A DNA stretch of 62,446 nt, filler included, from Hausera hauseri (Eukaryota), in NCBI GenBank assembly GCA_046269625.1. It is 12 parts of 12 records of this genome, joined end to end, with 100 filler letters (N's around TTAATTAATTAA, not from the genome) between each part and the next. Parts side by side here need not be neighbours in the genome. Positions count along the whole stretch, not along the records: positions 1 to 4,132 come from JBJURY010741653.1; positions 4,233 to 8,613 come from JBJURY010609221.1; positions 8,714 to 13,310 come from JBJURY010511573.1; positions 13,411 to 19,698 come from JBJURY010116876.1; positions 19,799 to 27,899 come from JBJURY010774313.1; positions 28,000 to 32,836 come from JBJURY010418477.1; positions 32,937 to 37,413 come from JBJURY010562118.1; positions 37,514 to 42,204 come from JBJURY010473910.1; 4 more parts are not named here. One strand, 5' to 3'. Numbering within the stretch: position 1 is the stretch's first letter; the number at the start of each line of letters is the position of its first letter. The position numbers and the translations under genes were made by a program. Under the pieces are notes generated by a model. That model made no database searches, was not told the origin of the DNA, and saw only the letters and a list, made by a program, of their open reading frames with translations. Shown here piece by piece: positions 1,743 through 57,658 of the stretch.

Positions 1743-1756
1743 TGTGGTGTTCCGCG
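1743..1756 (-). mobile_element. Candidate LTR terminus (minus strand CGCGGAACACCACA) of the cargo-LTR family
   Basis: Ends in CACCACA like the family terminus and sits where GC-richer DNA changes to AT-rich host-like DNA. Confidence 0.5.
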
Positions 1757-2259
1757 GTAGACCTCTATTTTTTAAATATCTATTTTAAAATTATTTATGC
1801 TATATAGTGATAAAATTGATAAGTATATTTCCAAACCATGTTTCTGCTAAAGTAAAAAAAAACTGCCGATAAATTTAACTCAAATCCATCTCGAACGCAG
1901 TCAAAATGAAAGTCAGTCTTATCAAAGCCGACGGACAATTTGGAACAAAAAATCAAATCTCGACCTGTTTATTTCACTTATGCAGCATGTCGCAAATTTT
2001 ACAACACAAAATGATTTCACTGTGATTTTATGGTGTTTTTTCATGGAGACTTTTCATATCCCAGCCGAAAAAGCAAAACCAAGTTACATTTTCTGATAAT
2101 AATACTCAAATAATTGAAGTTCCACGGGATACTTATGGTGTCCAATCACGAAAAAATTTCGAGCTAAACAAACGAAGTATGATACGAAAATTGCGAAATT
2201 TGCAAAATATCGTGTAATTCTCAGGTAATATTTGAGACACCTAGCTGGTAAAAGGCATA

Positions 2260-2690
2260 AAAATATTTGGATAAACTGGAGAAAAACGGTTATTCCTGTA
2301 AAAATTGTGTAGTTGAATTGAAAGATTACGAAGATTGGGAAAACCATTTCAAATCTGACGAACACAAACATAACAAGCAGAATATTCTGTCTCTCAACGT
2401 CAGTCAATCGTTACCCATTATTGACGTAACCAAACACGTTTTCTCATGTGACATTTGTCAAATCGACTGAGAGCAACATCATTTTACAATCTCATTTAAC
2501 CGGATTTCCGCACAAAAGGAAAGTGAGTATTGGCAATTGGTAAATTGAAAAATGCAAAAGACCCCAGCCTTTATTGTGAAATCTGCTCTATTTATCTCGA
2601 ACCCGATCTAATGATAATGCACAAGCAAAGTATTCGCTATCGAAAACAGTGCGATAAAGAAAATCAACCGATTGAAAAAGAGAATGTAAG
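2260..2690 (+). pseudogene. Matrin/U1-type C2H2 zinc-finger protein fragment
   Basis: Three CxxC-x12-H-x5-H-like units (CKNC...HFKSDEH; CDIC...HLTGFPH; CEIC...HKQSIRY) broken by a stop and frameshift. Confidence 0.65.
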
Positions 2691-2719
2691 TGGAACGCAT
2701 GTCCGTACTGACAACAATT

Positions 2720-3815
2720 TTGTTTTGGGGTCAATTGACATCGGTGTCATCAATCGCTGTCTCCAGTCCATCATAGGAGAATCGCGATTTGTCATTGAGT
2801 CATTCCTCATTGATGTCCTGAACAAACAACGGGCAATCCGTAAACTCATGACCAATTACTTCATTTAATCGGGGAATGATACGCATAACCTCATTGGTGC
2901 GCATCGATACGACAATACTCGACCCGACAGCATCCATAACGTCAACACTGTTCACCGTTCTCGTTTCCCATGTACGGGCCATGAATGCACATTGGTTTTG
3001 AGGTCAATACACCAACGGGACAGAGATCAATGACGTTACTGGACAAGTCACTGCGAAACAGTTTTTCCACATATGTTCCCACCTGAATGATGGTCGCTGA
3101 TGAATGAATAATTTTAACGAGATTTCACCTGCATGTCAGACCCACGACCGGTTGTGCCGAGAACATTCACACCGGCCACTTCACTGGTAAACCTTATACA
3201 ACGAGTGCAGTGAATACAACGCGTCATAATTTTCTTGATCAATGGTCCGATGTTTTTGTCCTCAACTGTGCTGTAAACAACGGTCAATAAAATGGTCAAA
3301 TAATGACTAATGCTCACCGTTTAACAAGGTACTGATTGCCAGTAAATTGTGATCGGTCACGGCCGAATACCATTGATTGATCCTTTACGCAAATATGTCT
3401 AAGAATCAAAGAATTGCAAACTTACCCGAAAATCACATTCACCTCCGTGATCACAAATCGGACAATCCAACGGATGATTCACGAGTAAAAACTCCATAAC
3501 TCCCTCTCTTGCCTTATTCGTCAAATCGGAATTCGTCTTAATTCGCATTCCCTTCATAACGGGCATGGAGCAACTCGCGACAGGATTTATACTTTTCTCA
3601 ACCGCGATAAAACACATCCGACAGTTACCGGCGATAGATAGTCGTTCGTGGTAACAGAATCTACGGTACAACTACATTAGTGAACGTAATAATCGTAATT
3701 ACCGTGGAATTTCCACACCGGCCAAGGCACATGCCTTCAGAATAGTCATTCCTGGATCATATAACGCCGAATGGTCATCAATAAACACCTCAACTTTGTT
3801 TGAAGCAACGACTTG
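2720..3815 (-). pseudogene. NDUFS1: NADH:ubiquinone oxidoreductase 75-kDa subunit, N-terminal Fe-S part, with five introns
   Basis: [40 protein letters not shown] and IDLCPVG motifs. GT-AG introns at 3661-3702, 3383-3425, 3271-3317, 3083-3128, 2818-2859. TGA at 2800-2802 plus frameshifts; 3' truncated. Confidence 0.95.
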
Positions 3816-3867: not shown

Positions 3868-4132
3868 ATAGTTGAAAAAGTTTATCGGGCTGTTGAGTTT
3901 GACCAAGGCTATGTCTTTAAGGATTACATTGATATAAACACTGCAAACAGGGCTGCAGCGAAATATCCTTTTGAATAAGACTTCTTAAGCTCAAGAACAA
4001 TAGCTTATATGGTAAGACTGTCGAAAACCTCTTAGAAAGGTCCAACTTGAGACTATGTAATAACGCTAAAAAGCTTGTTACATATGCTAGTAAGGCCCAG
4101 TTTAGAGAGAGTATTATAATAACCGATGATCC
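3868..4132 (+). mobile_element. Protein-primed DNA polymerase B (Polinton/adintovirus-type) fragment
   Basis: VYRAVEFDQ...YIDINT...FE*DF/KLKNNSLYGKTVEN (motif B), with a stop and frameshift. Confidence 0.85.
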
Positions 4133-4232: not shown

Positions 4233-5100
4233 ATAGATGGAGGATGGATAAAGCCGAATGATAAAAGTATTGGCCAATATTCTCCAATAATTCACAATCG
4301 TTTCTGATGGATTATAATTTTTCAATGTGCGAAAGAATAGCAGCAAGACCAACCTGATTATCCGTGCCAGCATATCGCATGGCCATTACAAAACTTGACC
4401 TCCTTAGCAGCAGAAGGTAACTATCATTGGCCGTCAGAATATACTTTTCAGCAAAATCCGTCGGTCGGACCTGCCCTTCAGACAGTTTGGGAAAGTTGTC
4501 TTTAAACGTGTATTCCAATCTTTCTTCAAGTTCCTAGAGAGAAAGACGAAAGCGTATGTAACATAAAACTCTTTTAATTAGTAGGGCAAAGTGTACAATA
4601 TCGTTATGAAAAGCTGTCTTAAAGAACCTCTCGGAATTGATTTTAACGGTAAATGTATAGCGTTGGATTATAGCGTTCATTTCAAAATTTTCAAGCAATT
4701 TAGCAAGAATTTTGTGTTCCAAAATATCATCCTTGTTAACAACGGGTCGATGCAAAATCAGGTATTGAAGTTTGAGACGCAGTATATCCGAAATGTCGAA
4801 CAGTTACTTTTTTTCACTATCAATGAGCCATGTAAGAATGACGTCTGTCGATAACGGTTTAACGCCTTTCTTTGACGGTGGTCTCTCAAATTTCGGCAAT
4901 GAGTATATAAGTCGACAACTGAATGTGTTGTTTAAGTTAGGTGGCCACCGTTTCTTATCCTGTAAATCAGGAAGTTCTGTACACGGATTATCGGTAATCG
5001 AATCAAGACTACGAACGAAAATCCTCTTCGGAAAATCCTCTTGAACCAATGTTATATAATATGCAATATCGTATCTGACAATCTGGCATGGTAGCATTTT
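4233..5100 (-). pseudogene. Unidentified host-like protein fragment (~290 codons in one frame, three in-frame stops)
   Basis: ORFs 4804-5097, 4534-4755 and 4312-4518 share one frame and are separated by single TAA/TAG codons. Confidence 0.5.
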
Positions 5101-5297
5101 AATGAGAGGTTGATGGATAAATATAAGGAATCCTCTAAATGTAAACGATTTATCTTTTGTTTGTTTAGTGTTGCTGTTTGTGACAGGAAATATGTCAATG
5201 GATAGGTTATCAGCTGATAATGATGTAATTTTACACAGTTATTAGAATTCAACTGAAAAATTGAAAACGGTGTTTCGGCCGGAAAATGATCATGTAA

Positions 5298-5770: not shown

Positions 5771-5965
5771 TCGCCGGCGCGACAAATAACAACGGTTGTA
5801 GGATGTTCGTCTTTTTTGCATTTTTACATTTTACCTTAGACTCCGGTAGCGACGGTCGTCAATCCATTGCATAAATTTCTACGTTGAAAAATTACAATCA
5901 ATGATGCAGAAACTACGAGTTCTGCATGTCGGACACTGATAATTTTCGTTAATTGTGCTGGCTGC

Positions 5966-9361: not shown

Positions 9362-12300
9362 TTTCTCCTCCCTGAGCGGCACTCTCGGATATGCCTATTG
9401 CGTCAGAAGAGTTGCTGCGTAAACGATTCATTCTCCCACGTATGTCCGCTTCCGAATCTGACTCATCTCGCGGGGGTCGCAAGTCAAAGCGGTATGCTGT
9501 AGTAGGCTTTTGAGTGAATATTTCCACTATCTTCTTACTCTCTCCATTAGAGAAATAACGCAACCTCGTAGCTTCAGCCCTATATACTAGGCAGGTCATC
9601 TTCCCATTTTCAGGGTCCACGTTTCTAAGCAATAATGACAGTAATTATGGGTGCAGTTCTTATTATCTAACACCACAAATCCTTTGTATAGGTTTGCGTC
9701 ACAAACGAGGCATTCTTCTTTTCACCCCATCTATATCTATAAGATTTTCGTCAATTTCAATTCGTTCGAACACGAGTCCCTTCTTGTCTTGGTATAAATA
9801 TCCGCATAGCCGTTTCTATTTAGGGTCTATTGAGCTCTTTTGGGGTCATCCGATAAGATAACCAATGTCCATACAACGATTTCTTGTTAGTCCAAATCTG
9901 GTGTCCCCATCTTCTTGTATTGCCTCTTTAACTGCACTCTGACTTGGGTGTCTACCGGAATAGTTAGTCGTTGGGTTTCGTTTCTTGATTGAAATATCGG
10001 GGCTAAATATCTGCCAATTGTTGCGTCTTTTCAGGAATATCCATTTCCACTCACAATTCTCCCAGGAACAGTAGAGACGTAAAATGTCGCTTCTTTAATT
10101 TTGCCATTGCTATAATATTCGGCCATGACGAGTATTCAGGTGTATTCTTCAACCTGACCGAATTCGCTTACTATGATAGGGGTTGCTTCTTTCCAGTTTC
10201 TTCGAAGGACATTTACTTCTGTTTTGGGTGGCTTATAGCTGAAGGTCTTTGTTCTTTGTTCGTTGGATTTTTCGGATCCCTGTTCTTTTGGTTTATCCTT
10301 TGGATTTATCACTTCTTCTTTAATAATTGGTATAAAACTTCTAGTAGACGGTTTCATTTCTTCGACTTGACCCTTACTGGTCTTATTTTTCTTTCTACTG
10401 ATATATTCGAAGAATGAGGGTTTCGACTTTTTCCCTCTCTGAGGCTCTCCGATGTTCGATTTTCATTTTCCCGTTGTCTTTTTGGAGGAGGGTCGGCCTT
10501 CGGTTAGACTGCAATTGGTGGATGGTGTGGTGTTCACATTCACCCAATCGATGATTTGTACAAAAAACATTTCTTGTTTTAATAAAGAAACTACTGAAAA
10601 ATTTCGCTCAAGATTTGAAATTGCGGCAGCTTAATTCAAAAAAGACTGTTGATTGGTGACTTAACAATTTTGCATTATTCTACTGTCGCAATTTTATCAG
10701 TTTTTTAAGTCGATTCAGTTCCTATTTCATTCGCCGTTCTGCACTCTAATTGATAGTTTTTATTTCGAGTTCCAGATTTGTTCCAGATAAAAGTGATCAC
10801 TAATTGATAGTCTTCGTCTGGCCGCTATTCAATTACTGTAATTGACTTGGTGTTATTTTCTAATTGATTTCAATTTGAACGTTATTTCTGTAAATGTCGT
10901 CATGAATAATTTCAAAATTAACTGTTTGTCAAGTTTATATTTTCTTTAATTACTAATTCCTTCTAGACGAAGTACAACACGCGGATTTCAATTTACTTTC
11001 TATTGATGCTGGATGTATTATTGTAATCGTTTTATTTTCTGACGAATTCTGGCTATCCATGGATACCGTACAATAAATGGACAAATAGTAATTGAAAACT
11101 TCGGAAATAACAGATGGGGTTTTCTGGTTATTTCCATTTGATCCTTTCTGTTCGAACAAGTTGACTGAGCTGTTTTGAACGGTTATTTGGAGATTATTAT
11201 GTCCTTGGATTTCAGTCTGTCTATACGAGGGGTATTCGCTAAATCCTTTTCGAAATTTCTGTATCAAGATTTTTGGGTTACTGTCGGACATTACATTCTG
11301 TGTAGAGTTTCTCGGCTTCCACTTTTGTTCCCAGCGTAGCGAGATATAAATATCTGTTACAAATCTGATTTTCTGACTCGCTGATATCAATTTGGGAAAT
11401 CTAAATGGTTCACAATTCATAGCTTTTAACATCATCTTAAACCGTGATTCACGAGACGCTGAAGGAAGTAGACACCCCCTTTTCTCATCAGGGTACGTTT
11501 TGTTTGAACTACGACTATCGGATTGCGACTCACTTCACGAATTTCGGCTATATATTTCTATCGGATTCCTAATCTTTCTAGCATTTCGTGTACTTTAAAT
11601 CCGGTTATAACATATCCGTACAAGCAATGGCTTATGTCTTCTTGAATCTCTAGAAAATCTTTCCACTTTTCGAGTTGTAGTTTTGTGATTCCGATAACGT
11701 CGGGAAATGTATCTTTCACCTTCATCCTAGGTGCAATTATTTTGTTTATAATTTCTTCTCCATTTATACTTCGGATAGAGACTTCGATTGGGATGAACCA
11801 TCCATCATCCTTTTCTCCATAGTTTACGGCTAAAATTCGAGTATTCCTGCCATCTGGAACTAGCCTGAAAGCTTCTCCATTCTGTTCTATCTCGTCTTCT
11901 ATGGGGCTTCTGTATACATAATATTGATGGTAGCGGTCTCATCACTTCTCATCACAAGCTTAGTCGGTAGTTCAGCAATTCTAAACTCTAAAGCGTAGTC
12001 TATGAGACTAGCGCAATATAACTCATATGTACTAAATTTTCCTTGTTGACCTCTTTTGGTACTCTAGGGCTGCCCTACGATCCTGTACTGTATTTCTCCA
12101 TCAGCGATATGTATGTACATTTGCTGGTGTGTCAGTTCGTATGGGATCATATCTCTCAACAGATATGCTCGTGCATCTTTTGGACTTCGCATTGCGTATA
12201 ATCGAACTATCCGATTTTCTTCTAAGCCCCATTTCAGTCCATTTGGTATTTTGCTTTCTTGATCGATTTCTAAACAAGTTTGGTTTTTCAATCTTTCTCC

Positions 12301-12414: not shown

Positions 12415-12519
12415 ACTTACTCTGCTAAGATAAAAATAAAGGTCAATCCTAAGACAGATCATCGTTTTGAAACAAAACATTTTCTCTGTCTGATGATAGG
12501 ATAACCCGATATGTAGTTT

Positions 12520-20464: not shown

Positions 20465-21954
20465 TTAGTGAGATAATTCTCAAACTAAAGAAGAAGATCA
20501 CAATATGCAAAATAAAGAATTTCAGTCATTATGGCAGGCAAAGCAACAAATATTTGCCTAGCCTAAAGAAGCCCAATATAATCCTGTTTATTTGTTAGGC
20601 TCGACGTTCTAATCCATTGATTAATCTACCATTTTCCTGTTGACCAAATTAATCCTGCATACAGAATGTCTTAAATAGATATATAATTAAAGCGCAAAGT
20701 CAAACAATCATGCTCGTCCAACTAGTATTCGTGGAACTACTGATCAGCACTGTGTCTAGTGACAAAATTCGTAAACGTTTCTGACACTAAATTTATAAAT
20801 TTTAACATTTAGAATGCACGGATTTACCCGTTGAAGAAGCAATTCGGTGTTACTTTGTGAGCAGTCTGTATTTACCAAGTGGGATGGACAATTTAACAAT
20901 AAATGCCGTTGCCAAATCTGCATTTGGCGAGGTAAAGAAAGGTGAACAAGGCGAGATTTTGTTCAATTCTCCACTCCTGTCTCTGTCATATTTTGTGCAC
21001 AATAACGAATGTTCATTCGAGTATTCTCTTTAATTTGTGAATATCTCAGGTCAGACGACAATAACACATGTCGCCCTGTTATCTTTTCCATAAACATGTG
21101 AAACCTCAGACACAGTTGTTTCTTGCAGAAAATTTCTGGTAAAGTTCACCAACTTCTGACGGTCATATTTTTCTGTCTGTCCAATTATAGTCTCAAAGGA
21201 AGTAATTCTGATGATTCTGTGAGCGAGATTCCTCTTTACGACAATTACAAAAAAATTGGGCACCAGAGGATATCCTCAACAAAGGCAATTCAAAACCTTC
21301 GAAAATAGTCACAAAATTATGACGGCAATAGGAAATTTCAAAATGGTGGAATCACAGTTAGAGAGAACGAAATCGTAAAATTCAAAAATTAAATCCAAAT
21401 CGAAATTCAAATTATCTTTAAATATCAAAATCTTTCAACAGAGAGAAAATAGCAATGGTTGCTAAAATGAAATCGAAAGCCTTTTATCAATAAAAAATGT
21501 CCAAAATGTCTGTTTCTGGTCATGAGGAATATTTAAACAAAAATTTATATAAATATGTACATCTACAAGAGGCCGGGTAATTCCAGCAATTACTAACTCC
21601 CGACAATATAATGATTTGGCGATTTTGGTTGACCTTGTCGACGAATAAAAATTGAACAATCATACATATGGATTTAACAACAAAAATCTGAAATGAGCGC
21701 AAATCAATCGAACTAATCACAAATACATATGGAAATAGGGACGAGCGATCGGCGAGAATGAAACACTGATAGCGACAGTAATTTAATTCAAATCCTGATA
21801 ATCACCTTTTACGAATTGGTCTTTTTAGATTTAATGCTTGACTAAATTAGTGTTTTCTATCTTTTCCCTCTGATTTCTAAATCACAACATTCGGTATTAT
21901 GAATCGACAAACATAGGACATTCTTTCGTTTGGTTTCGGTGCAAATATTGGTAA

Positions 21955-22735
21955 TTTACTTTCCTTTCTCTCTATGCGCAGTAAATTCAATGTCTGTTCT
22001 TCAGATAAGTAATCTTGAGTTACGAAATCGTGCGAAAGCAGTATTTCCGCAGTTGGTCGTCGCCGCTCATTTTTTGATCAGTGCATATTTAAGGAGGAAG
22101 TGAAATCTTGGTGACCACGATTCTTTTTTCTGAAGTTTTAGTGGTGAATACGTTCTCTGGGCCAAAATCTGCAAGGCATACATAGGATGTAAATCAAATA
22201 ATGGTGGCTGTAGTTCTGCATATTCAATAGCAGTAATACCAACTGCCCAGACGTCACAGCGTTCGTCGTATCTACTTTATCTATTGTTCACTGCAGCAAC
22301 TTTCGGTGTCCTCCAGTACGGAGTTCCTATTAACATGTTTCTTTTGGCATAAGTGGAAGACAATTTCGCTGCGATTCAAACGTCAGCTATTTTCACTTTT
22401 CCATTATCAGTAAGAGGGATATTAGCACCTTTCATATCTCTATAAATACGATTCTTTTTGAGCATATACTCAAGACCTCTGAGTGTTTCTCTAGAAATAA
22501 ATGCAATCGTATTTTTTCAATGGACCGTAGGAGATTGAGATAAATATCTTGTATTGACTGACCACCGCAAAACTCCATACAAATCCAAAGTTTTGAATTT
22601 TGCAAATAACTTCCAAAAAACTGTACAATATTTTTATGCGTACATTCTTTTAATGTATGAATTTCTTGGCAAATAACTGTAACGTCATCACGAAGATCGA
22701 TTTTCATTATTTTGATGGCAACATGCAGATTGGTT
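21955..22735 (-). pseudogene. MAP4K (GCK-I/Ste20, MAP4K3/5-like) kinase domain
   Basis: VAIK, KLWICMEFCGG, YRDMKGAN, DFG changed to DV*, GTPYW, CDVWAVGITAIEYAELQPPLFDLHP; frameshifts and stops. Confidence 0.92.
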
Positions 22736-23384
22736 TTATCAAAGTACCAGCAACTTACGGTTTCTTAATGTGACAATGATTGTTATCAACGACACGAAAA
22801 AAACATCATGGGTTGATTTAAGATGATCGCATAACCTCTGACAGAATGGTAGGTCTTCTAATTTCGTTACCAAATTTAACACGCCGAAAATTGGTTTTTG
22901 TGATTGGGATCCGCGATTCGAACAAATAGTATCCAATTCATGCCAAGGAAGATGGTTTGAAAGTTTATTCTCATCGCTAACCGTACTGACAACGTTTATC
23001 AAACAGTTTGAATCATTTTCTTCAGTTACTGGTGGCAAATATGTCGGAAGCAATGACCGTATCGATTGCTTGGAAATGATAATTATGAACCAAATGGGGT
23101 ACAACTAATCCCACAATTGACATCGATTGAGCTAATAGAATTTCCAATACCAGATTCGAAAGGACAGCTGATATGAGTATTACAAGAATCGTGCGAAGCC
23201 TTGGAATATGACCTAGAGTTACAAAAAGAGTTAAAGTCTATATCTGATTTGATGTGTAGTCTGAAATTTAAGCTACTTGTAAATGAAGACCTGTTGATAA
23301 ACTTGACACAAGAAATTTCCTCAGAATTATCATTAGTCGTATCCGTTCGCCTTATAGCTTAAATTTTAGAGGCGGAAGATCTGG

Positions 23385-23462
23385 GCCCGACGCGGCGGCA
23401 ACGGACGCCCGGCCGTGTCCAACCAGATGGGCCAGAGGGAGCCGGGCGCTGTGGGCACCACA
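23385..23462 (+). mobile_element. GC-rich LTR right end of the CsRn1-like family, directly abutting a Tc1 transposase
   Basis: 66/78 ungapped identity to the reverse complement of 56126-56203; ends TGTGGGCACCACA. Confidence 0.85.
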
Positions 23463-26725: not shown

Positions 26726-26738
26726 TGTGGTGACCACA
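26726..26738 (-). mobile_element. LTR right-end motif TGTGGTCACCACA (minus strand) at the junction between TRIP12 and fish-like DNA
   Basis: 12/13 match to the terminus at 23450-23462; TRIP12 similarity appears to stop here. Confidence 0.65.
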
Positions 26739-27524
26739 TCTTCCAAACAAGGTAGCAACCAGTCAGAGCCTTTTTTTCTTACTAGTTAAATAAAAATTCT
26801 AACATAAAAAAACAGAAAAAGAAATACCTGCATCTACTTGAAGGTCTTGTTTAGGTCTACTGCTTTGTATTAATCTAACTAAAGTAAGAAAAAATGGTGA
26901 GTTGACCTGAAAATGGCTTAACGGGAAGAAAATTACATTATAACAACAATGCTTGTGAACGAACAAGTGTCTGTTTTAAATCAACTGCATTTTTGGTTCA
27001 AGTATCTTCATTCAGGGCAGTTAATGCAATACAAACAAAAATGCATTTGTTCTGCTCACAGATGTTTTTATTGCTGCTGGTTTAACTCATCTTTATAATT
27101 TTGCCCTCCAGATTTCTCTTTTGTTCTGTTCCAGTTTGGTTTATTTTAAGAACATACAACTTCAGTTCAGGCTAATGCTCTCAGTAGTTATTTTTATTTC
27201 CTTATCTTAAATACACAGCCGATTCAGCTGAAATTCCTCAAAGATGTTTAATGTCATGCATAACACAATAACCACCCAAGATGAAAGTAGCAATGGCACA
27301 GTTTTCCGCTGGAGTCTGGCATCATAATGTCCAGATTTATCGATGTGGTATATCTGTATCGATACGCCAAATACGTAATGGTAAATACTGATTCAATTGG
27401 AGATGTGATGCTTTTTGTTTTGCTTGTAAAACATGAATGCTGTTGTCATTTATTATTTTCGTGTCATCTGGTAACCAATCCAACTTTCTCCGTCCGTTTT
27501 TCCTTTTCCCCCCTCTCATTTCAG

Positions 27525-27666
27525 ATACCTCCATGATCGCTATAAAACAGCTGTGCAAGTTTTGTGATTTGCAGGCCACCAACTGTCCCGGTAAGGGAAT
27601 CTGCAAGGTGGATTGTGAAATTACCTCCATCTGCCCCGATGATAATGACGTGTGTGTCAGCATCTG
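27525..27666 (+). CDS. TGFBR2: Teleost-type TGF-beta receptor type II ectodomain exon (142 nt) with intact splice sites
   Basis: QLCKFCDLQATNCPGKGICKVDCEITSICPDDNDVCVSIW parallels vertebrate QLCKFCD...CSITSIC....VCVAVW; polypyrimidine tract plus CAG acceptor and GTAAG donor. Confidence 0.9.
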
Positions 27667-28018
27667 GTAAGCTCCGTTTCCACAATATCTCATCATTTGG
27701 GACCTGATTTTCATCTTGACTCAGTTTATCTGATGTTCTGATATTTGCATGTAAAGCAGACAAAAAGCAAAAACGGGAGAATCCTGTAAGGAGCCGGATA
27801 CTTTTCACAGCACGGCGAATGTCATACTTTTAAGGAATATGTTGGAGCTAAAAAAGAGCAAGTTTGGAATAAAGCCAAACCGGACACATCTACATATTGN
27901 NNNNNNNNNNNNNNNNNNNNNNNNNNNNNNNNNNNNNNNNNNNTTAATTAATTAANNNNNNNNNNNNNNNNNNNNNNNNNNNNNNNNNNNNNNNNNNNNT
28001 GAAGATAACAAACATCAT

Positions 28019-31000
28019 TTGACTGACTTCACATCAAAGTCAAAGAAGATCATCTTTAATGAACATAAGTCAGTTGCAGCAGCACAGCCTGCAGTACTAC
28101 AGCCAGATGAAGGATTAAAACGTGCATCAGGACCATTATGCGCAGCAGCATCAGGTGCAGCAGCATCAGGCACGGCCACATCAGATGCACCGGCTCCATC
28201 AAAAAGCCAAGGACAGCGGCCGGTTAATGCTGCAGCATTACACAGAAAAGTCTACATTTATGTCATTGATGCAACTGGTCAAACAACCCTCAAGGAGTTC
28301 CTGGAGTACGCAAAGGACAACATAGCTCAGCTCAACGCCATTAAGGCTAATATAAAACTTGAGGCCACTTACGTCAATGTTGATGGTAAAGAGTCCAAAA
28401 GGGTCTTCAAGACCAGAAATAGGCAGAAACAATTTTTGAAGCCACCAATATAATAAAATGGCTGCATGAAGAGCATGCGAAGGTGATTATTGACGCCGAT
28501 GAGAACCAGAGTAAGAAGAGCGGATGGACTCTGAGAAACGTTAAGAGCTTGCTTGTGTATGTGCACAGATTCTCGCACTATGCGAGGTAGTGTACATGTT
28601 CAGCTCCCTGATTGGATCGCTAATAAAAAAGCATGTGACAATGTCCATAATAACGACAACATGTGTTTCATGTATGCCATTCTATAAAAACCCGTACCGG
28701 ATCAACATAATGCTTTACGAGTTTTGCGATATAAGGATGTGCAGCACAACTATGAATTCCAATGTATCACATTCCCTCCATCCTTAGATGAAATTAGGAA
28801 GTTCAGTCAAATCGACAACATATAAACCAAGATCTTTTGATTGGATGAGGAAGATAAATTCTATCCCCTGCAGATATGATAATGAATTGGAAGATCATAG
28901 GGATCTGCTCCTACTTGACGATGGAGAAAAGAAACATTACGTATGGATAAGGAATTTTCAACGTCTAGTAAGATCCCAAATTACTAATCATCATGGAAAA
29001 ATTGAGATCTGTAAGCGATGCCTGTCTCATTTTAGCGGTGATACTGCAGTGGACAGGCTCGCAGAGCACAAGATTTACTGCAGCAACAATTACTGTATCA
29101 GGCCAGAATTTCCCAAGGAGGACTATATTGAATTTAAGGAGTTCTAGAAGAAGCTCAAGGTCCCAATTTTCGTCTATTGCGACTTTGAAGCTATTCTCAG
29201 ACCCGTTCGGAGTTGCAGTCCTAATCCCCAACATAGCAGCACAACGGCATATCAATATCATGAGCTCTCATCATATTGCATGTATGCCAAAGGACTGGAC
29301 AGTGAACCATTTCTATTCAGGGGCCAGGCGCAGCAGCTCATTTCATGAAACGACTTAAAGATTGTGATTAGGTCTATTCATGGTCTTACCCAGTGAAGAA
29401 TTCAAATCTGTATTTTGCTTAATGATATCTGAGTCCAATCCGAAAAAATCGACATTCGAATTAGCCTGAAAGTTGTTAAACGTTATCGGTTTAACTGGAG
29501 TATCATGACGACTCGTATGTTGATATGATACAGTTGAAAAGATCTGAGATTTAAGCGAATTGATAGAATTCGTAGTAGATAAACGAGATTCCGAAAGATT
29601 ATCTTGGGTTGAATTAACTACAAATGCACCGTGAGTGCTCTGAATTGGGATCGGTGATTTCTACAATCGGTGGAGTTGAAAGTTCATCACAAACATTGTT
29701 GGAATTTGCGCTTATATCAGGTTGAGAAACCTCTGATCAATTCGGATACGAATGACGTATGACTTTGTGGCTGATTTAGAACATCATAGAAGTATTTTCT
29801 CTAGGTGTCGAAGACACATCAACTATCGCTTGGTTATCAGTTTGAGAATAATTTACGTCACCATGAGGCTCATACTGACTGGACCTTTCAGTTAAGCGAT
29901 TATTACATGTCTGAATATTAGTATGAGAAAAACCATATCTTTCCGAACGACTTTCTGGATTACAACAATTCATTAAATTTTTTTCTTTGGTATAAAACTT
30001 ATTCACTTAACAAAAATCCGACTTTTCTCTGGCTAATATATTCTCTTTTTTGAACTGTTTGAAGTACATTAATTTTTCTTTGGTTGTTAGATCGATTCCA
30101 GTTAATCATGTATAATCGGCAATTTCAGTTTCGGCAACTTTGTAATCATAGTTAATATGTTTCTTCAAGAATAATTCGTCCATTTATTTTACCTTCATCC
30201 AGCAATAGCAAGAACTCGTAGGAAAATAAAACTATTATAATAGTAAATCCAACACCAATTAAAAAAATCGAACTCTGCATAAAGTCTTATTTATTTAAAC
30301 AATCAGTTTTTGTTTTTTACAAATTCCACATGCAGATCACCAATTGGGTGAATGTGGGCGCCACAAAGATATGTCTCATAGGATTGGAGATATGCTGCAG
30401 CAGCATAAGGATACAATGAGCATGTCGATGCAGCAAGAAGAAAACAGCATGTTACTTGTGCTTTACTAAGGAGAATTATAAAGTCAGGGATCACTGCCAA
30501 TTTACAGGCACATATCAAGGTGCGGCATGCAACAACTGCAGTTTACGTTGCAAAACATGTACATATGTGCCTGTAGTGTTCCATAATCTCGGTTGCTATG
30601 ATTCCCATTTCATTGTTCGGAAACTGGGCAGCACTGAAGGAAACATTGATGTGATCCATAATAGTGATAAGTACATCACCTTTACGAAGCATGTTGGGAA
30701 AATCAGACTACGCTTCGTAGACAGTTTCCGTTTTATGTCGTCTTCACTTGACAGTTTAGTGAAGAACCTCCCTGCATAAGAACTCAAGAAGACGAAGTGG
30801 TTCTTCCCTATCTGGTCAAGAGGAAAGGCGTGTTTCCGTATGACTATATAACATCATGGGAAACAATGAATGAGACCTCTTTGCTGGCCAAGAAGGACTT
30901 TTGCAATATCCTCTCTGATTGCAATATCAGTGATATGTACTACCAGCATGCACAGAACGTCTGACATACATTTCAATGCCGAACATTAGGCGAATACAGC

Positions 31001-48199: not shown

Positions 48200-48579
48200 C
48201 CTTCATTTTTATACTACTTTCATGAGTGCCGTTCTACCGACTGCATTTAATTTCAGTGCAATATTCCACGTATTCTTCTGGAATAACGAATTCGTCGTTG
48301 TTAGCCTTCAGAATAACACGGTGATATTTTATCCTCCTACGTATTTAAGTCGATCAAAGAAAGACAATTTATGTCTGTCGTCATGTACACGAATTGAAAA
48401 CGAACCCAACAAAACAATTTTCTCTCTGTCATGTTCAGCAAAACCCGACGGCAGTTCGACGAGTAAATCTACCCTTCACACATCACCCCAACTAAGCTAT
48501 AATAAAATCATCGCACTCAGCATACGATCGTTCNNNNNNNNNNCGACATCTATTTGAAATACCGCCTACAACGTTTTAC

Positions 48580-49050
48580 ATAGGGTCGTTTCCAAATTAC
48601 AACATCGGAGGAATTATTCGAAATAAGAGTGGACAAATAACAGTACAATGATGCATTATTGTTAGCCAAACAATACCAATTAGACAGTGATAGCGTGTTG
48701 CATAAACAATGGCGCAATTCGAGCAAAACAATCGATGATATCCGGAATATACTCGTTAAAATAATGAAGAAAAATTGGATACTGAATAAGTGTTTGAAAC
48801 ATATTCCGGATAGTAATGAGTCATTGCGTTGTCTGTTGAAATTGGGTTTGCAATCGACAGCTTCAAATCAGCTAAATAATGATTGTGTTGTTGTGCCTGA
48901 TGATTTCCGGTTCATTTGTAACGAGTTTGATGATATTCATGCTGGCGTGCAATGTCTTAATGAACTGCCGTTAGTTAAACTGGAAATTATTCGAGTATGA
49001 TTGAAATTATCGCAGTACTTGGATAAATTGGTATTGCATGAGGAAATTAA
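48580..49050 (+). pseudogene. NBAS: NBAS (neuroblastoma-amplified sequence/Sec39-like) fragment; more decayed coding-like sequence continues to about 50450
   Basis: TTSEELF...YNDALLLAKQYQLDSDSVLHKQW...KKNWILNKCLKHIPD...LLKLGLQST; in-frame stops. Confidence 0.8.
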
Positions 49051-50689
49051 ATGCGTAATGAATACGAATACGAATCTTAGTGATATTATTCTCCACGATT
49101 CATTACTCATTGAGTCAAAAAGTCTTACTGCACAATTCTATAATAGCGTCTATAAGAAATGCATTTACTGTTGGGACCAGAAATAAAAAATTGTACTTTT
49201 CTTTCAACTAATATGTTTGACATTTTCACACGGACAGTTAGACACAATTCTGAGTACCATGATAGTCTTGTCGAATACGTTGAATATTAGTACCCTTGAT
49301 TTCTTAAAACTAAGCAGACTGGATAACACTTCCACAAATCTCTGTAGAACGTCACTCATGTTTTGTGATAAAGCTATCAGATACAACAAAATTGGTTTTA
49401 TTCACGTTTTGACTGATGTTATGCAGAATTCGGCGGGATTTGACAAAGGGTGATTTCGGTGTGATGGAACTTCCATCAATTTTCGAATGGTTGAAATTAT
49501 TTTGTACATAACAGCTGATATTCAAAAGTCATTCGTTTTACTGGAGAAATTGGTTTCCGATTTTCAGGACCATTTAAACATTTGTTTTTCCTCCGTTAGT
49601 TCTTTGACCGAGAAGCAACAATATTACGGCTATATCCGAGTTTTGAAGCAGGAAACAAGTCCACACCTCTCATAGTGCGCCATATATTAAGAGTTATATT
49701 TTCGATCCAGTTGCTAAGACTTTATAAAAATATACATCGATTTATGACTCCAGACATTTTGACACCGGCTCACTCTTTTTACAATCAGTTTTGTACTATC
49801 ACCGAATATATTCATTCAGCAGAGTACCAAACTCGTGTGAAATTACTTCATGAATCATTAAGGGACTTTGTATGTCTCCAAAAAATTGGAGATGAAAGTC
49901 GAATGACGCGTATTTTACAAAAACAATTTTTTTTTGAAAAAGGTGATTTTAATGTTCTCTATAAAGATAGACAGAAATTTCGTCAATCAGCAGTTTTAAG
50001 TTGTTTTCACTGTCTTCTAATTGAAGATGAGCATAATATGAAAATCTATCGAAATAAAACAAACGATGTACTCGAGGATCTCATGGCAAAGGTGATTAAA
50101 AAGATTGAAAGCTACAAATCCATTGGTTCGCCGCCTGAAGTGATAGCACGGATGTCAAATGTCGGTATTCGGAAATTTCACTAAAATCCTTTCAATCGAC
50201 AAATGTTAGAACGTTTAGCTGTTTTAAAAGAAATCAGCAAGCCAACAAGTGCCAAAACAGAAGAAAATAATACCGAACTTCGGAAATTAGGAATAATGGC
50301 AGATAGAAAACCGTCACAGATAATGGAGTTCGAAAACACAACGATTTGGCCATTCGCAAATATCACCTGCCAAGAATCTAAAAAACTGTCGGGGAATTTG
50401 TTATCGGCCCTTCTTTTACACTTTGTCATATCATACCAACCAAAGTAGTTCAATCACTACATTCAGTATGATTCAGTATAGTTAATTCAATTAAATGTTA
50501 CAAATTCGGCTGTCTACTTGTTCGACTTATGAACAAGGGACTAGAATCTAAAAAGTTACTTGCTGAACTAGCTAACATACAAAAAAAGAATTGACTTATC
50601 ATTTTTCGAACCAACTGATCGAATGCTCCAGGTCATATCCACATCCACTATTCCGGATACCACTCTGGTTGGGCAGACCAGCCATTACA

Positions 50690-51453
50690 ACGCAGGGATT
50701 TTGGGCGCGCCCGTGTCATATGCACCACATTGCACACCCGACTTATGTGACAACATCGTTTCACTTGTCTTGTTATTCGAAAATAAGCATACACAAACCT
50801 ACTACATTCACAAATCAGCAACAATTGCAAAATTGTCAGGCATGTTACAACGACAAACAACTCTTGCTAATTTTCGCCTTAGTTTTAATGGACTTCTTCC
50901 CCAATAATCCGACATTATAACAAGTTACACCCACTCATCTTCAACACCTATACTGACTGTACACTATTGTCTGTTAGGTAGATCCGATCCAAAAGCCTCA
51001 TCTAACGACCAACAAGAGTGTCGACATTCCTACTATAAGCGTACCGCTAAATTCACCTCTACCTCCATCATCTACTGTAAACCTACCATGCGTAGAATAC
51101 TTTACTGACAAGTAACATTCCAGCCGGACGTTGTTGGACTTCAATGCGGCTTTGTTGAAGCCGAATAATATTGTTGACTTCTTTCTTAAAAAAACAGCTT
51201 GCTTATACTTTTTTCTTCCACAAATAAGTCGCAACTTTCCATCTTGTCGGAAATTTTCCAAAGCAGTGACCCATACAAAAGGCTTTTTAACTCAATTTTA
51301 AAAATCAGAACCATCTCTGGATAACATTATCCACAAAGATTTTAACGACAACATCATAGGCACATTAAAACCCTCAGAATTTCTTCAAACCTCACTAACT
51401 CAGTTGAGTACTCTTGGCGTTAACCAAGCAAACAACGCCGATTTTTACGCGGA
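50690..51453 (+). mobile_element. CsRn1-like gypsy copy C: 5' LTR end (50729), leader and gag start
   Basis: TTGGGCGCGCCCGTGTCATATGCACCACA and the downstream gag region are homologous to copy B. Confidence 0.85.
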
Positions 51454-51553: not shown

Positions 51554-54500
51554 TTATGGCTATTTCTTTATTGGACTAAGACTAGTTTCTGGACGTGAAA
51601 ATTGTAACTCATCAACTTTCATAATCATCATTTATGTGTTTTTCACTGACTCAAAAATATTTCGCTCTTTTAATCATCCTGAGAAACCGATCTAGAATGA
51701 GTTCGTAAAATCTTTCTGTGTTCGGTTCAATTCTTGGACCACAGCCGTCCGTACGAGAGTTGGCGGACTAAAGTCAGGTCGAGTGGAACACGGGTCAAAA
51801 ATGCACCCAGCCGCCAAACGCTTGTCTTAATTGGTGGCGACGCCCGTAACAGTGGCACCACAGTACGCCCCGTAACAAAAATGACACTATAATACATAGC
51901 GAAAATATGAAGATAAAAATCTCGAAAAAGGAAAAGGGTTTGTGTTCTACTCAATTTTTTTGTGTACTAGGCGTTGTACTTTGTTCACATTTTGCTTTAC
52001 TGTACTTACTGAAAGTAACTCTGCGTGTTCTGTTTTTATGTGGTGTGTTCGCTTGCAGAGATGTACATAGGGGTGAAAGCTTTGTCGTTGATTGTTTGGT
52101 ATTATTTTTGTTGAGGCAGGTGAGAGTTTTGATGAACGATTGAGTGAAACAAAAATGGAGGAAGAAGGTGAAGACTTTCAAATGAAAAGTGAAGAGTGAG
52201 GAGTAAAAAATGGAGAATGTGAAGTAGATTTGGTAGATGAGAAAAGGGGAGTAGGAATTGAGACGAAAGAAGCAGAAAATGATTACTGTGAAGTAGTGGA
52301 TGGGACGTAAGCTGTAGAAAATGAGAAATGAAAAGTAACAGGTAAAGAATTGGAAGTATGGGTAGAAAGATTAAAGAGAAAAGCGGGAATTGGACCAGGT
52401 GGTGGTTGATTATTCGTTGATTTATCAAGGAACGGAATAGAAACAAAAGAATCGAGAAAAGTGCCAGTGGAGGTGAGGTTGTTTTGTGTATCATGAGGAG
52501 AGTCGTCCACAAAGAAAGCAGGTTTTAGATTGGTGATGTGTACAGTTTGTTCTCTACCGCTTTTAAGAATTGTAGCTGTGTGAGTCGATAAAGAAAGGAG
52601 TTTGAATGGCCCAACGTATTGTGGTTGAAAATCACCAGGTGAAAGATCTCGAAGCCAGACAAACTTGGCAGTATACAAATCATTTGGTATATTTGATTTG
52701 TTATAATTTACTATTTTGCAAAATGAGTCTTTGTTTAGTGCAAAGTGATATTGGGCATTTCGAATCAGTTCGTTTGTTGGTGTATCGTCCAAATCATTTA
52801 ACTCAAAAAGTACTCGAATTGGTGTTCCAAACAATGCTTCAGCTGGTGCACAACTTGTGGTGGTGGATGGTGTGTTTCGCCAGCCAAGCAAGACAAGACC
52901 GTTCGCTTGGGGATTATATGGAGAAGTGTGTATATGTTTAATCCCCAAGCCATTGACTAAGGATTTAAAGAGATTTGACTTGAATTGTTGACCTTGGTCC
53001 GTGATTATGAAACAAGGGGAGCCAAATCTGCTGATCCACGTTTTGATGAAAACCTCAGCGATAGTGCTTGTGTTGGTGGAACGTAATGGAATGGCTTCTG
53101 GCCATCGAGAAGAACGGTCCATCATTGTGAGTAAGAATTGATGACCGTTGTCTAGACGAAGAGGGCCAACTAGGTCCATGTGAACGGATTCAAAACGTGA
53201 CGTACAGGGGAAGTGATATAATGGTGTCTTCAGATCCTTTTGAGTTTTGAATTTTTGGCATGCCACGCATTCCTTAACTTACGCCTGTACGTCTAATCTC
53301 ATCGACGGCCATATAACGCTACGTTGCAGATGAAAAGTTGCTTTGACACCCGGATGATGAAGAGAATGTACGTTATGAAATGCTGTTTTCTGCAAAGATG
53401 AAGACAAAATTGGTTTGTGATTACCGGGTTTAGACGTGTCATAAGCTATTCTGTCGACGATTTGGTGCCATTTAAAAGACTTAAGAATTTAATGTGCTAA
53501 TACGTTTTTCTGAAGCACTGCTTGTGAAAAAATGGAAGTGACTCCAATGATGTTAATCGATCTCGACAAAAAATCGGCAACAAAATTGTCAGTGCCTGAA
53601 ATATGAACCATTTTAAAATTGAATGTCGACAAGTGCGATATGTGACGTTCTTGCCGAGGTGAAGGAGTTTTTATATCCATGATGTGAATGAGATGTTTGT
53701 TGTCATTTTGAATCGTAAAAGACCTGTCAATTAGCAAATGCAAGAAATGTTTTAGAGATAATACTACAGCTAGGAGATCTCTGTCAAAAGTTGAGTAACG
53801 ACTTCCTGGTGATGTACGTTTCCGAGAATAAAATTCCAGAGGGCAAAAAGACATACTCAAAAAGACCGAAAGGTGTTGTCACAGCTGTTTTCGGTATGTC
53901 AGCAGGTGAGACAGGAATCTGATGGTAGGCTTTATAATGATCGATGGATGAAAATATGGTGTTGCCATTGAGTCTGTGTAGGATATCGCTGATAAGAGGT
54001 AATGGATATGCGTCTATTACCGTAATGTTGTTCAATTGGCGATAAACGCCACAGGGTCTGAAAGTACCGTCCTTCTTTGGCATTACGTGTAGAGGTGAAG
54101 CTCAAGGTGACTTTGATCTTCTTATAATTGCTGCCTTTTCTAATTCATTGAACTCCGATTCCACAGCTTTGCGTCTGCGCGGAGAAAGCGGCCTAACCTT
54201 CTGTTTAATTGGTCTTTGGTGTTCAGTGAAGATGTGATGGTACGTCGTAGAAGCAGGCTTGAAATTTGGGTTTTTCTTCAATGCTCTAGGACAAGATACT
54301 GTGATGTAGTCACGAAGAGCTGTATCCAGTTACATTAATGAGGAGGTGAGGTGAGATGCTGTGTCGGTGTTGGCAATTGTTTTTGTTGTTACTGTATAAA
54401 TGGAAACGTCACAATCGAAGTTACCAACATTCAGTTTATCTAATTTAATAAAAGATTTCTTTAATATAGATTTCGAAGCTACAGCCAACTGCGCGAAAAA

Positions 54501-56218
54501 TGGTGCAATATTTTTTGATTTTGTATGATTGATTATACTTTTAATCACACGGTGCTGCTTGCAATAAACTAGTAAGTTGTAGTGCGATAAAAAATCAGAC
54601 CCTAAAATTGATGTTTTAATATCTGCAACAACGAAATTCCATTGAAAGACATAAGAAAAATGTGGCAGGGTGAAAGACATTTCTGTAGCACCAAAAATAC
54701 GTAATGCTTGCCCATTTGCCGTGAAGAGTTTAGTAGACGTACGGAGCATTTTTAGTGAAGTGAAAGATGAAGGTAGTAATGAACCAGCTGCACCTGAATC
54801 GATCATAAATTTAGTGTGGTGCGGAAAAGATGTGAATCCAGAATCCAATAAGAAAACGCTATTGGTAGAAGTACGGCAGTCAAAACAGAAAAGATGGCCT
54901 TTCCAGAATTTTCCTTAGTTTCTGGCGGCTTTAGGCGTTTTCTTTGAATAGATGAATAGGTTGGAGTTTTCTGGGTGTAAAATGTACACCCAAATAAGCA
55001 GCGCTCTACATTGTCTTTAAACCTACTGTGATAGATGCAGACAGTATCGTGTGACTGGAAACGCTGCGTATAGAACTTGCGGCCTATACAGCATTTTTTG
55101 GCATTTTGATCGAATTTTGTGTGATAATAGCACACTATTTTCCTCGAAGGTGACTGGGCGTGCCTAGAGTTTGCAGACGACTGTCTGCTTCGATCTGTTA
55201 TAAACCGACCACGATGCGGTAGATCCAAAGCGTCAATTTTGCTAGAGATGACCGATTTGGCTTGATGTAAGGCTGCATTTTTGGCTTGCAAATTTTGAAT
55301 TTGATAGACTATACTGTTCTCGTTGTTTGATGAGTTTGCTAATTGTAGATGTGTAACTATTGTTCGTGATTGCGCTACTTGCAGAGCTGCAATCGGTTTA
55401 TGTACATTACTGTTGTGAAAAATTTCGTAACTTTTTTCTGCAAGTTGCGCCAGTTTGTCGAGCGACGTAGAATCCTCCACAACAGTAATGAGTGCGAGGA
55501 TTTGGATTGACAAGGATGATAAGAAATAACGTAGAAGAAGATCCGCGTTATTTTATTGGTTTACTCCTAGTGAGTTTAGTTGTGAAAGTGAGGTGCGAAG
55601 AAATTTTCAGGGCTTTTGCTGGCCAAGAGCGTTTTCGTTGAAGTATATTTGTATTATTGTGACTAATGAAGACTCGGTTGATGTAGTTACGGTGTCAAGT
55701 AGTAATTTATATGGGTCAGAATGATTAAAGATGTCAGAAAGATTAGTTATGCCGGATTTTATATTGGGTGGAAGATGGAAAAGTAGACTGTTGGCCTTTT
55801 GAAACAAATCAGTGATTTTATGTGAGGCTAGCCACTTTGCTTGGAAGTCTAACTATGTTCTGCAAGAGTTTGGATTATCGAAGAAAAAGTCTACACATTG
55901 ATATTGTGAGAAAGAAGATGGAGTTGGAGAAATAAAGGTTTTGTTTGGGGATTTTTTATCTCCTCAGAATTGAGGTCAGATCCACCATGAAGTTTAAGAA
56001 TTAGATGTAAAGAGAAATGAAGTATGTGATTGAAAAGAGCATAACAGATCGTCGGGGCGAATAATGAGTCCATTCAGAAATAGAGAAGCCAGAAAGATGG
56101 ACGTCGTTGCATATCGATGTGTATATGTGGTGCTCACAGCGGCCGGCGCCCTCTGGCCCATTCGGTTGGGCACGGCCGGGTTTCCGCTGCCGGCGCGTGG
56201 GACACAGGCAGGCCCCGA
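51554..56218 (-). mobile_element. CsRn1-like gypsy copy A with both LTR junctions and an internal RT/RNase H deletion
   Basis: 5' LTR end GCACCACA at 56126; PPT-like GGGGCGTAC then 3' LTR start TGTGGTGC at 51862; gag CHCC x2, MIDSGA, IN core. Confidence 0.95.
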
Positions 56219-56258
56219 TTTTAATATTTATAATTAATTATAAGTATTAAATAATAAA

Positions 56259-57402
56259 TTGATATTCAAAAATCGTAAAGCAGAGTTCCAGAATAGTGAA
56301 AACAAGGACAACTCAGATAAATGTCTCATCGTTTACCGACTTCATCCGTCATATTCAGATGGAATATTATTAGTCCACATTCTGTGTGCCTCTCTCAGTG
56401 ACGAACAGTGCCCAGTCAAATTGAAAGATCGATTAAAGATTCCTCAGGCAAACTTTTAATGGCATTCGATCACCGTTTATTGGACCAGTCGTTTTCATGC
56501 AAAAATGGCTTTTGACTCGTCGTGACGTGAATATTTTCCATCCATATCCGAAACAGAAAACCTTTTCAAAGCCTATTTCAATGAGTTCATCCGATAAAGT
56601 ATCTATAGAGAATTCTAAGGAATCTAATCAAACAACCAATGAGACATCAAATCAAGGTAACAAAGAACAAAATCCTATGGAATTTAAGAATTCTGTTGAA
56701 GGTGATCGGCCATTTTATTAATGTACTTATCCATTGTCGACGGTTTCTCGAACTAAATGTGTAGCGAGGTCCACAATAACTGAAGTGTCCTTAGCAATGG
56801 TTGCGGGCGCCCTTCGGACTTATCAGCAACATATCGGTGAAGTACCTCATCCCTATGATATTTTATGTTTGATTCCCACTGATTTAACCAAAGAATTTCA
56901 TGGATCCGTATTAAATAGAAATAGTTCTTCAGCAGCCAGTAAAGCCAGTAATCTGAGTAGTATTGGCGAATATTCATCTCATTTGAAAAACAATTATTCA
57001 TTAGTCGACTGTGGTCTACCAACGAACACAGAAGGTATGATTCCTAGACTTTGGGAGGTCAAACAACAAATGGAAGAGTTGAAAAACAGTGCAGACAGCA
57101 TTATTCTTCGTGGATTAACACGTATTCTTTGGAATTTATTTCCAAAAAGTGTTGATCAGCGAATAATGCAAATATATTATAATAAAAATAGTCTTTTAGT
57201 ATCATCCCTGCATGGTCCCGATTACAATTTGAACTTTGGTGATAAAACAATCCATGATATTACGTATTGGTTTCCAACAATTTTTGATGTCTCTTTGGCA
57301 ATATCATGTTTCACATACTCCGATTCCTTTATTTGTTCAGTGTCAGCTGATGCTTCCGAGTTGCCAAAAATTCGTTTAGTTTTAGACTCTATTGTATATC
57401 AG
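56259..57402 (+). pseudogene. Wax-ester synthase/DGAT (WS/DGAT)-like protein fragment
   Basis: RLHPSYSDG (HHxxxDG-like), TITEV...AGALRTY, SSLHGP...FG...YW, ISCFTYSD; one frameshift, one stop; ends at a GT donor. Confidence 0.75.
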
Positions 57403-57658
57403 GTTATACATTTTATTGGTTTGGTGAATTTTTTAATGTTCGGACACTTTGTATAATTGTCTTTTAAATTTGAAACTTTTGAGCAAAAATACCTTTAATA
57501 TTTGCTTAAAATTATGCAATATGGGCTCTGTAAATGTTAAATCATTTTGCACTTCTTCNNNNNNNNNNNNNNNNNNNNNNNNNNNNNNNNNNNNNNNNNN
57601 NNTTAATTAATTAANNNNNNNNNNNNNNNNNNNNNNNNNNNNNNNNNNNNNNNNNNNN

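Follow-up and report, generated by a model that had tools for sequence, protein, structure and literature searches.

Can the body of a long terminal repeat (LTR) of a gypsy-type retrotransposon hold captured pieces of host genes? The question is raised by a stretch of 62,446 nucleotides from Hausera hauseri (GenBank assembly GCA_046269625.1; hereafter the window), in which a short gypsy-type terminus recurs beside differing DNA, some of it broken host-gene sequence. A preliminary description had read this terminus as one shared right LTR end, with the LTR body as a cassette of mostly antisense cargo. The ends, the insertions and the excess of gene remnants are real, and cargo inside the LTR is likely but unproven. 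The explanation that we prefer, with slightly less than even confidence, is that the motif is the integrase end of CsRn1-like gypsy elements, shared by several LTR families, and that host-gene pieces entered the LTR body in the form of sense RNA while reverse transcription was under way.

Sequences and controls

The window consists of twelve contigs of 4.0-8.1 kb, numbered here in order and joined by 11 identical 100-nt artificial spacers (N44, a 12-nt stop word, N44), across which reading is invalid; two internal gaps are also present. The gene mosaic described earlier is thus not one locus, since twelve contigs are joined, but contigs 1, 2 and 5 are mosaics on their own. The nine best matches of the MAP4K fragment (9 of 49 candidates passed) are all from flatworms, at 75-82% identity; therefore, by homology, the organism appears to be a neodermatan flatworm. 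The accessible parts of two papers on monogenean genomes (PMC10308649, PMC12677651) give repeat fractions only.

Public runs containing words of contig 5 were X1 (0.46), perhaps not independent of the assembly, and X2 (0.05; organism B). Statements on their contigs refer to the pieces listed, and summed depth in X1 is a qualitative guide only, not a copy number. A metagenome scan with the contig-8 reverse transcriptase (RT) gave 78 control loci. Forty of these are at least 4.5 kb long, and 25 of the forty have a long direct repeat; 15 were read as LTR pairs and ten were excluded as contig overlaps or other repeats. Stop-codon depletion was assessed against 200 shuffles for 12 regions on both strands, uncorrected.

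The recurring terminus and its orientation

The 13-mer is present exactly at the five claimed positions (10526-10538, 23450-23462, 26726-26738, 30353-30365 and 56126-56138), against 0.02 matches expected from 100 shuffles, a figure inflated because the pattern was drawn from these same sites. The TGTGGYG 7-mer alone occurs 20 times in the window, where about 10 are expected. The full 13-mer has no match in 442,620 bp of control loci, and the exact patterns of the A and B ends described below have none in metagenome, viral or prokaryote contigs. Two weaker termini did not survive: the one at 7271 gave no match at two or fewer mismatches, and the one at 1743 is indistinguishable from chance because an equal match lies at 5705, inside PHD coding sequence. 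Both 5705 and 7271 were rejected as element ends.

On the opposite strand all five 13-mers read TGTGGYG, which the available part of PMC3601003 (Table 3) gives as the 5' integrase motif of the CsRN1 clade. Fourteen of the 15 control LTR pairs (about six of seven families) start with TGTGG, the complete ones spanning about 130-210 bp; 4-bp target site duplications (TSDs) were seen in four control loci (L009, L020, L023 and L042). In family A the far end is not TGTGG and, in a 587-bp unit, AATAAA lies 40 nt before that end. Therefore the case for the 13-mer as the left (head) end is strong in family A. In family B it is quite probably a head as well, from the likeness to A, with the caveat that tails may also read TGTGG when reversed, as at 50729. 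The conserved core is, to judge from its sequence, the ordinary integrase end of the CsRn1 clade.

Thus the supposed right terminus fits a left end on the other strand. With the motif as head, WS/DGAT, MAP4K, TGFBR2 and a 790-bp insert would all lie sense to it, so that the idea of antisense cargo falls, and with it the proposal that this orientation would yield antisense or small RNA directed at host genes. Preservation of introns by antisense transcription is not borne out either, as spliced-looking and intron-containing pieces both occur and the cargo reads sense.

Two complete units

Complete TG..CA units with exact 5-bp TSDs are found at two of the five 13-mers, as had been proposed; the other three are without a partner in their own contig. 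Among 5732 CA sites taken as background, 466 had a TSD and TGT within 3 kb, and 26 had a TSD and TGT.ATT.

10526..11112, plus strand: complete unit of family A, 587 bp, TSD GATGG; head of about 65 bp, about 370 bp of private non-coding-like DNA, 116-bp AATAAA module, tail
29363..30365, minus strand: complete unit of family A, 1003 bp, TSD AAGAT; head, 116-bp AATAAA module (30278-30164), private insert of about 790 bp, tail
29380..30160, minus strand: insert of the 1003-bp unit, stop codons depleted on the head strand only

The 587-bp unit splits a reading frame of no assigned identity, which is the same on both sides across the TSD. The 1003-bp unit sits within a polB remnant, which we take to be of the Polinton type, and its AATAAA is 825 nt from the tail. 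The ends of each unit are non-identical, and neither unit finishes in a copy of its own first 13 bp. Therefore each is a single LTR-like piece and not an LTR-interior-LTR element, and neither has the two identical LTRs, with a primer-binding site (PBS) as well as a polypurine tract, of a terminal-repeat retrotransposon in miniature (TRIM) or large retrotransposon derivative; no paired ends were found in any of the 12 contigs. The 587-bp unit combines TG..CA ends, a TSD and a poly(A) signal near the tail, all three being features of a solo LTR. Terminal inversion is limited to 3-4 nt in both units. The inverted repeats of Pack-TIR and Ginger-type DNA transposons are tens of bases long.

In the 790-bp insert, stop depletion was equalled by 2 of 200 shuffles on the head strand and by 187 on the opposite strand. 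The MAP4K fragment, taken as a coding control, also gave 2/200, and two non-coding controls gave 173/200 and 171/200. No gene was recognised in either complete unit. One of their 12 frames was compared with 1.8 billion representatives; the sole match, a repetitive unrelated protein at 23-24% identity, was rejected, and a fibronectin-like reading of the 587-bp unit, made by eye only, was dropped. The frames around this unit (9500-13310, minus strand) contain a membrane-spanning-like stretch and a weak RING finger.

Three families of ends

The ends split, on present sequence, into at least three families, in place of the one terminus proposed.

23360..23462, minus strand: family B end of about 103 bp, rich in GC and most likely the head of an LTR; Tc1 transposase remnant on its outer side
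56126..56230, plus strand: family B end; outer side adjoining the 5' region of a gag-pol copy on the opposite strand
26726..26773, plus strand: head-like 13-mer, weak likeness to family A, ambiguous
50700..50729, plus strand: LTR tail of family C, about 30 bp, with a degenerate PBS and then the gag region after it
42171-42201 and 26143-26172, both minus strand: family C-like units

Family A comprises the ends at 10526 and 30365, which have in common about 65 bp of end and the 116-bp module (z=20). The module is at 456-571 in the 587-bp unit and at 88-202 in the 1003-bp unit, so that the private DNA (about 370 bp) precedes it in the former, whereas it follows it (about 790 bp) in the latter. 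Together, head, module and tail make an LTR of about 200 bp, which is as long as in intact relatives. The earlier statement that the interiors are unrelated does not hold throughout, since the two complete units share the end and the module. At 13859-13885 and 14508-14582, contig 4 shows a 13-nt match to the end of family A and a weak version of the module region (z=7).

Family B comprises the ends at 23462 and 56126, with about 103 bp in common. Both have another transposon on the outer side and host-gene DNA on the inner side, and the DNA that follows a B end differs: MAP4K, WS/DGAT and, in one X1 contig, pol. The repeat boundary at 23462 is sharp. In X1, summed depth is 10275 in the B-end bin of contig 5 against 13-24 on unique DNA nearby, and 19007 against 5-8 in that of contig 11. 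From position 23462 depart 126 X1 contigs with dissimilar flanks (agreement 0.37), and from 23382 depart 182 with flanks more alike (0.65). Therefore the B end is the boundary of a much-repeated element that reaches somewhat further inward.

Family C had been missed in the preliminary description. Its member at 26143-26172, a TG..CA unit of 30 bp, resembles a hairpin (4 of 200 shuffles folded equally well) and is 200 bp away from a remnant of histone H2A (25690-25940, plus strand), which 8-12 X1 contigs meet. A conserved RNA hairpin in the ends was considered and rejected, one of seven having folded better than shuffles.

Gene remnants behind the ends

Pieces of WS/DGAT, MAP4K, TGFBR2 ectodomain, NDUFS1 and PHD are confirmed, as is the histone H2A remnant; the supposed ZP stretch has no Pfam match.

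21934..23350, minus strand: DNA behind the contig-5 B end, a coding-like piece of no assigned identity (22770-23350) and broken MAP4K
56280..57403, plus strand: broken WS/DGAT piece with one frameshift and one stop, sense to the head
48560..50690, plus strand: broken coding sequence, sense, running directly up to the family C tail; weak KNTC1 ARM match, presumably NBAS
26774..27899, plus strand: vertebrate-type DNA, sense to the 26726 head

The MAP4K remnant is a broken kinase domain of flatworm type, colinear with the trematode orthologue over about 665 nt, and is met by 6-11 diverged X1 contigs per listed site. Like WS/DGAT, it is colinear with its orthologue without intron-sized gaps. The frameshift in WS/DGAT was also considered as a 31-nt intron, but the snail orthologue has eight residues there and a frameshift is preferred. 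One WS/DGAT contig of X1 leaves the window after 57402, where a repeat starts (about 57403). X1 gave no second diverged WS/DGAT copy, which was not counted because contigs cannot show absence. The coding sequence at 48560..50690 fills the place expected for the 5' LTR body in contig 10.

The vertebrate-type stretch, which we take to be of teleost origin, has an intact TGFBR2 exon at 27525-27666 with its own splice sites. Contigs of X2 are about 90% alike to it from 26774, that is from 48 nt behind the 26726 head, a palindromic site that also contains the 8-nt core of the tRNA-Trp PBS. None of the X1 or X2 pieces listed spans the junction at 26774. X1 gave no cover over 26845-27899, which was likewise not counted.

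The gag-pol copies

52286..56125, minus strand: decayed CsRn1-like gag-pol copy (CX2HX9CX3C knuckle, protease, RT, integrase)
37900-42170, 50730-51453 and 57659-62446: sister gag-pol copies
51554..51871, minus strand: real 3' LTR start of the gag-pol copy (TGTGGTG at 51862) and a polypurine-tract-like stretch

The end at 56126 had been taken for the 5' LTR end of the gag-pol copy. This does not agree with what surrounds it: no PBS was found after 56126, the real 3' LTR at 51862 is unlike this B end, and the 130 bp adjoining 56126 align to the sister copy of contig 12 from 62367 only, 79 nt before that contig ends. The extension alone was equalled by 22 of 500 shuffles (p about 0.04), which is moderate evidence. 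The simplest reading is that a B-headed unit was inserted into, or fused with, the gag-pol 5' region. The true 5' LTR tails are evidently the C units of contigs 8 and 10.

Membership of the CsRn1 clade gives a mixed picture. The Gag signature CX2HX9CX3C has four full matches, in contigs 8, 11 and 12, and at 51862 (minus strand) TGTGGYG follows a polypurine tract whose G-richness resembles that of the controls. The canonical tRNA-Trp PBS (TGGTGACCC) is missing; a degenerate version occurs after the tails at 42171 and 50729. The core of this PBS is found in 40 of the 78 control loci, and relatives with up to about 60% RT identity have a Trp PBS. At the PBS position (42153-42170, minus strand; 50730-50747, plus strand) the TGG that pairs with the tRNA CCA end is absent from both copies; therefore the primer may be unusual. 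The TSDs of the complete units also differ in length from the clade, as discussed below.

Further observations concern the Gag region. The CX2HX9C knuckles are doubled in tandem at 40961-41107, 54986-55132 and 61226-61380 (minus strand), both being complete in contig 8. The region before Gag looks by eye like a ubiquitin-like domain with a GG-type end in four copies (50745-51025, plus strand; 41890-42155, 62200-62446 and 55975-56125, minus strand); such a domain gained no support from PDB, Atlas or Pfam. No Gag homologue was found among longer proteins (0 of 1544 candidates). A Tc1/mariner-type transposase remnant (35799-36818, plus strand) and a second, distant gypsy RT-RNase H remnant (45814-47303, minus strand) are also present.

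Other features of the window

Several unrelated gene remnants lie within 2-3 kb, without a convincing element end, at 500-3800 and 4233-6440: weak RAB3GAP2, a zinc finger and NDUFS1, and PHD fingers next to what by eye looks like a helicase remnant. Two polB remnants, related to each other and badly broken, occur at 3871-4132, adjoining the 5' end of the NDUFS1 fragment, and at 28400-32300. A 490-bp element at 19965-20453 resembles a miniature inverted-repeat transposable element, with 42-bp inverted arms at 90%, and is much repeated in X1. Contigs 1 and 4 have a 99-bp repeat in common at 72% (1507-1605 and 15884-15981), and contig 4 also contains a methyltransferase fragment (15111-15356, plus strand). 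Fragments at 42694-43551 (plus strand) resemble by eye the Rep helicase of a small circular DNA virus, without a Pfam match.

Weighing the explanations

The proposal that the LTR body is a cargo cassette is upheld in part. Short, much-repeated gypsy-type ends are followed by differing DNA that includes remnants of host genes, and a long coding-like insert lies in one unit that resembles a single LTR and is flanked by TSDs; the single terminus and the antisense cargo have to be given up. Several observations speak against cargo written into the LTR body. No two LTRs of one element form a pair in the window, and no tail of a B unit was found in the contigs concerned, the far ends lying off them. 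The 3' LTR at 51862, the sole LTR tied to gag-pol by a polypurine tract, is conserved and cargo-free and has no coding signature on its own strand. The 370-bp insert of the 587-bp unit is not coding-like (185/200 shuffles), and the 12 frames of both complete units gave no Pfam match above the cut-off. Both units have 5-bp TSDs, not the 4 bp of the CsRn1 clade, and what follows the A 13-mer is similar to contig 8's degenerate PBS (p=0.02, uncorrected). WS/DGAT is represented in X1 by two long near-identical contigs (2 and 3 differences), as a resident locus would be. NDUFS1 in contig 1, with several short introns within 1 kb, and TGFBR2 both keep introns; therefore not all fragments are from spliced RNA.

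The first alternative, which we consider doubtful but worth keeping in view, is that the conserved ends are whole miniature LTRs (13, about 30 or about 80 bp) followed by a decayed PBS, and that the elements are non-autonomous, with gene pieces in place of their internal region, as in LTR-mediated retroposition or cargo-bearing TRIMs. It would account for the TG..CACYACA units of about 30 bp at 26143-26172, 42171-42201 and 50700-50729, for a similar 31-bp stretch at 51832-51862, and for the X1 contig in which a B end is joined, on its inner side, to pol. In agreement with it, the A 13-mer is followed by bases that look like a PBS, and so is position 81 of B, at 56207 (p=0.03-0.05), although 33 comparisons were made, uncorrected. 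The layout is that of all 15 fly cases in the accessible part of PMC5131818. However, neither of the TSD-flanked units repeats its first 13 bp at the far end, the 3' LTR at 51862 stays conserved well beyond 31 bp (at least 309 bp, where the contig end cuts it; 23-24 X1 contigs meet it), and the 587-bp unit resembles an LTR in having AATAAA 40 nt before its end.

Ordinary decay is an unlikely explanation. By this account the units are solo LTRs of related families with fast-changing U3. The gene remnants would be flanking sequence, or nested insertions, in a genome where repeats abound, as do pseudogenes that arose by other routes. The motif core is a normal clade end, no gene was recognised in either complete unit, and 587 and 1003 bp are ordinary sizes for LTRs. 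The gene mosaics of contigs 1 and 2 lack a convincing end, and Tc1, polB and other relics are intermixed. Decay is best supported at WS/DGAT, which resembles one locus in X1, and by the cargo-free 3' LTR. It does not explain well why the 790-bp insert, enclosed by exact TSDs, looks coding on one strand, why both B ends have transposon outside and host-gene DNA inside, why the MAP4K remnant exists in many diverged copies, or why coding DNA occupies the place of the 5' LTR body at 48560-50690.

Very improbable is the account by which short-read assembly joined repeated 100-bp ends to unrelated DNA, vertebrate-host contamination included: the contigs are short with two internal gaps, no listed X1 or X2 piece spans both sides of a B end, one X1 contig diverges from the window at 57402, and the account is most plausible for the TGFBR2 junction, but mis-joins do not make exact TSDs or a frame that continues across the 587-bp unit.

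A possible mechanism and its consequences

How sense RNA could enter the LTR body may be outlined as follows. In reverse transcription (outlined in PMC13317346), the first strand transfer is followed at once by the copying of U3, and the second transfer makes both LTRs identical. At the first transfer the new DNA might jump onto a co-packaged or read-through host RNA; a return before the polypurine tract would give head, sense cargo and R-U5. Integration would be restricted to products that keep head and tail, and the second transfer would copy the insert into both LTRs. Therefore the insert could be inherited, stacked with later captures and left in solo LTRs. Cargo would come to lie before the tail, the position seen in contig 10 and the 1003-bp unit, if a switch took place during strong-stop synthesis or if an upstream host promoter drove transcription. 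The cargo seen is broken, and no protein function is predicted for it.

A bolder version, which appears improbable at present, is a flatworm gypsy lineage in which the conserved part of the LTR has shrunk to integrase caps (13-100 bp), the tRNA primer site of canonical form has been lost, and the LTR body is rebuilt from any RNA met, including intron-containing RNA or vertebrate-host DNA. Every solo LTR would then be a package of gene fragments, and the lineage a standing route for exon shuffling and host-to-parasite DNA transfer.

If cargo does lie inside the LTR, it would be doubled in each cycle, kept in solo LTRs and stacked into mosaics, which could account for a genome strewn with broken pieces of single-copy genes. 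Such pieces would inflate gene counts and duplicate scores in parasite annotations, and LTR finders and consensus repeat libraries would miss these families. If a head is truly attached to the TGFBR2 piece, part of what looks like host contamination in parasite assemblies would be real transfer. The minimum conserved length of an LTR would also become testable.

Comparison with known systems

The following comparisons refer to the accessible parts of the papers cited. The CsRn1 clade of Ty3/gypsy (PwRn1, AgCR; PMC2582038, PMC3601003) has the same CX2HX9CX3C knuckle and domain order, the TGTGGYG head, the CACYACA tail and a G-rich tract before the 3' LTR. In contrast to that clade, the PBS lacks its TGG start in both visible copies, the knuckle is doubled where the CsRn1 description (PMC2582038) has one, the TSDs of the complete units are of 5 bp and not 4 bp, and the LTR bodies vary and are long, against about 200 bp. 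The tapeworm families Saci2 and lennie (PMC12471100) are likewise flatworm gypsy elements with TGT..ACA ends and varied LTR and PBS sequences, but have 4-bp TSDs, near-identical LTR pairs and no reported cargo. A published report of host genes inside flatworm LTR bodies was not found, most subscription papers and supplements lying outside the search.

Fixed ends around changing gene fragments are known from Pack-MULEs, Pack-TIRs and Helitrons (PMC8277862, PMC13317346); unlike these, the units described here have inverted repeats of only 3-4 nt, TG..CA ends, a 5-bp TSD and gypsy heads and tails. LTR-mediated retroposition (PMC5131818) is closer in that partial host-gene pieces are joined to LTR-element sequence, chimeras of several genes arise, further copying proceeds as non-autonomous units and no poly(A) tail is seen. 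Tan et al. (2016; PMC5131818) describe 15 fly cases, in all of which the retrocopy took the place of part of the internal open reading frames between the LTRs. This is not so in the two complete units; here the cargo seemingly lies right behind the head, before the tail, or inside one TSD-flanked LTR-like unit.

The nearest precedent for foreign DNA in an LTR is BARE-2, considered together with the long Veju TRIMs (PMC13317346): aberrant template switching put foreign sequence into the LTR of the former and lengthened the latter. The insert of BARE-2 came once, from another retrotransposon, whereas here the inserts differ from copy to copy and include host genes. Capture of genes by LTR elements has been described before, with the internal region replaced; what would be new here is the apparent cargo within the LTR.

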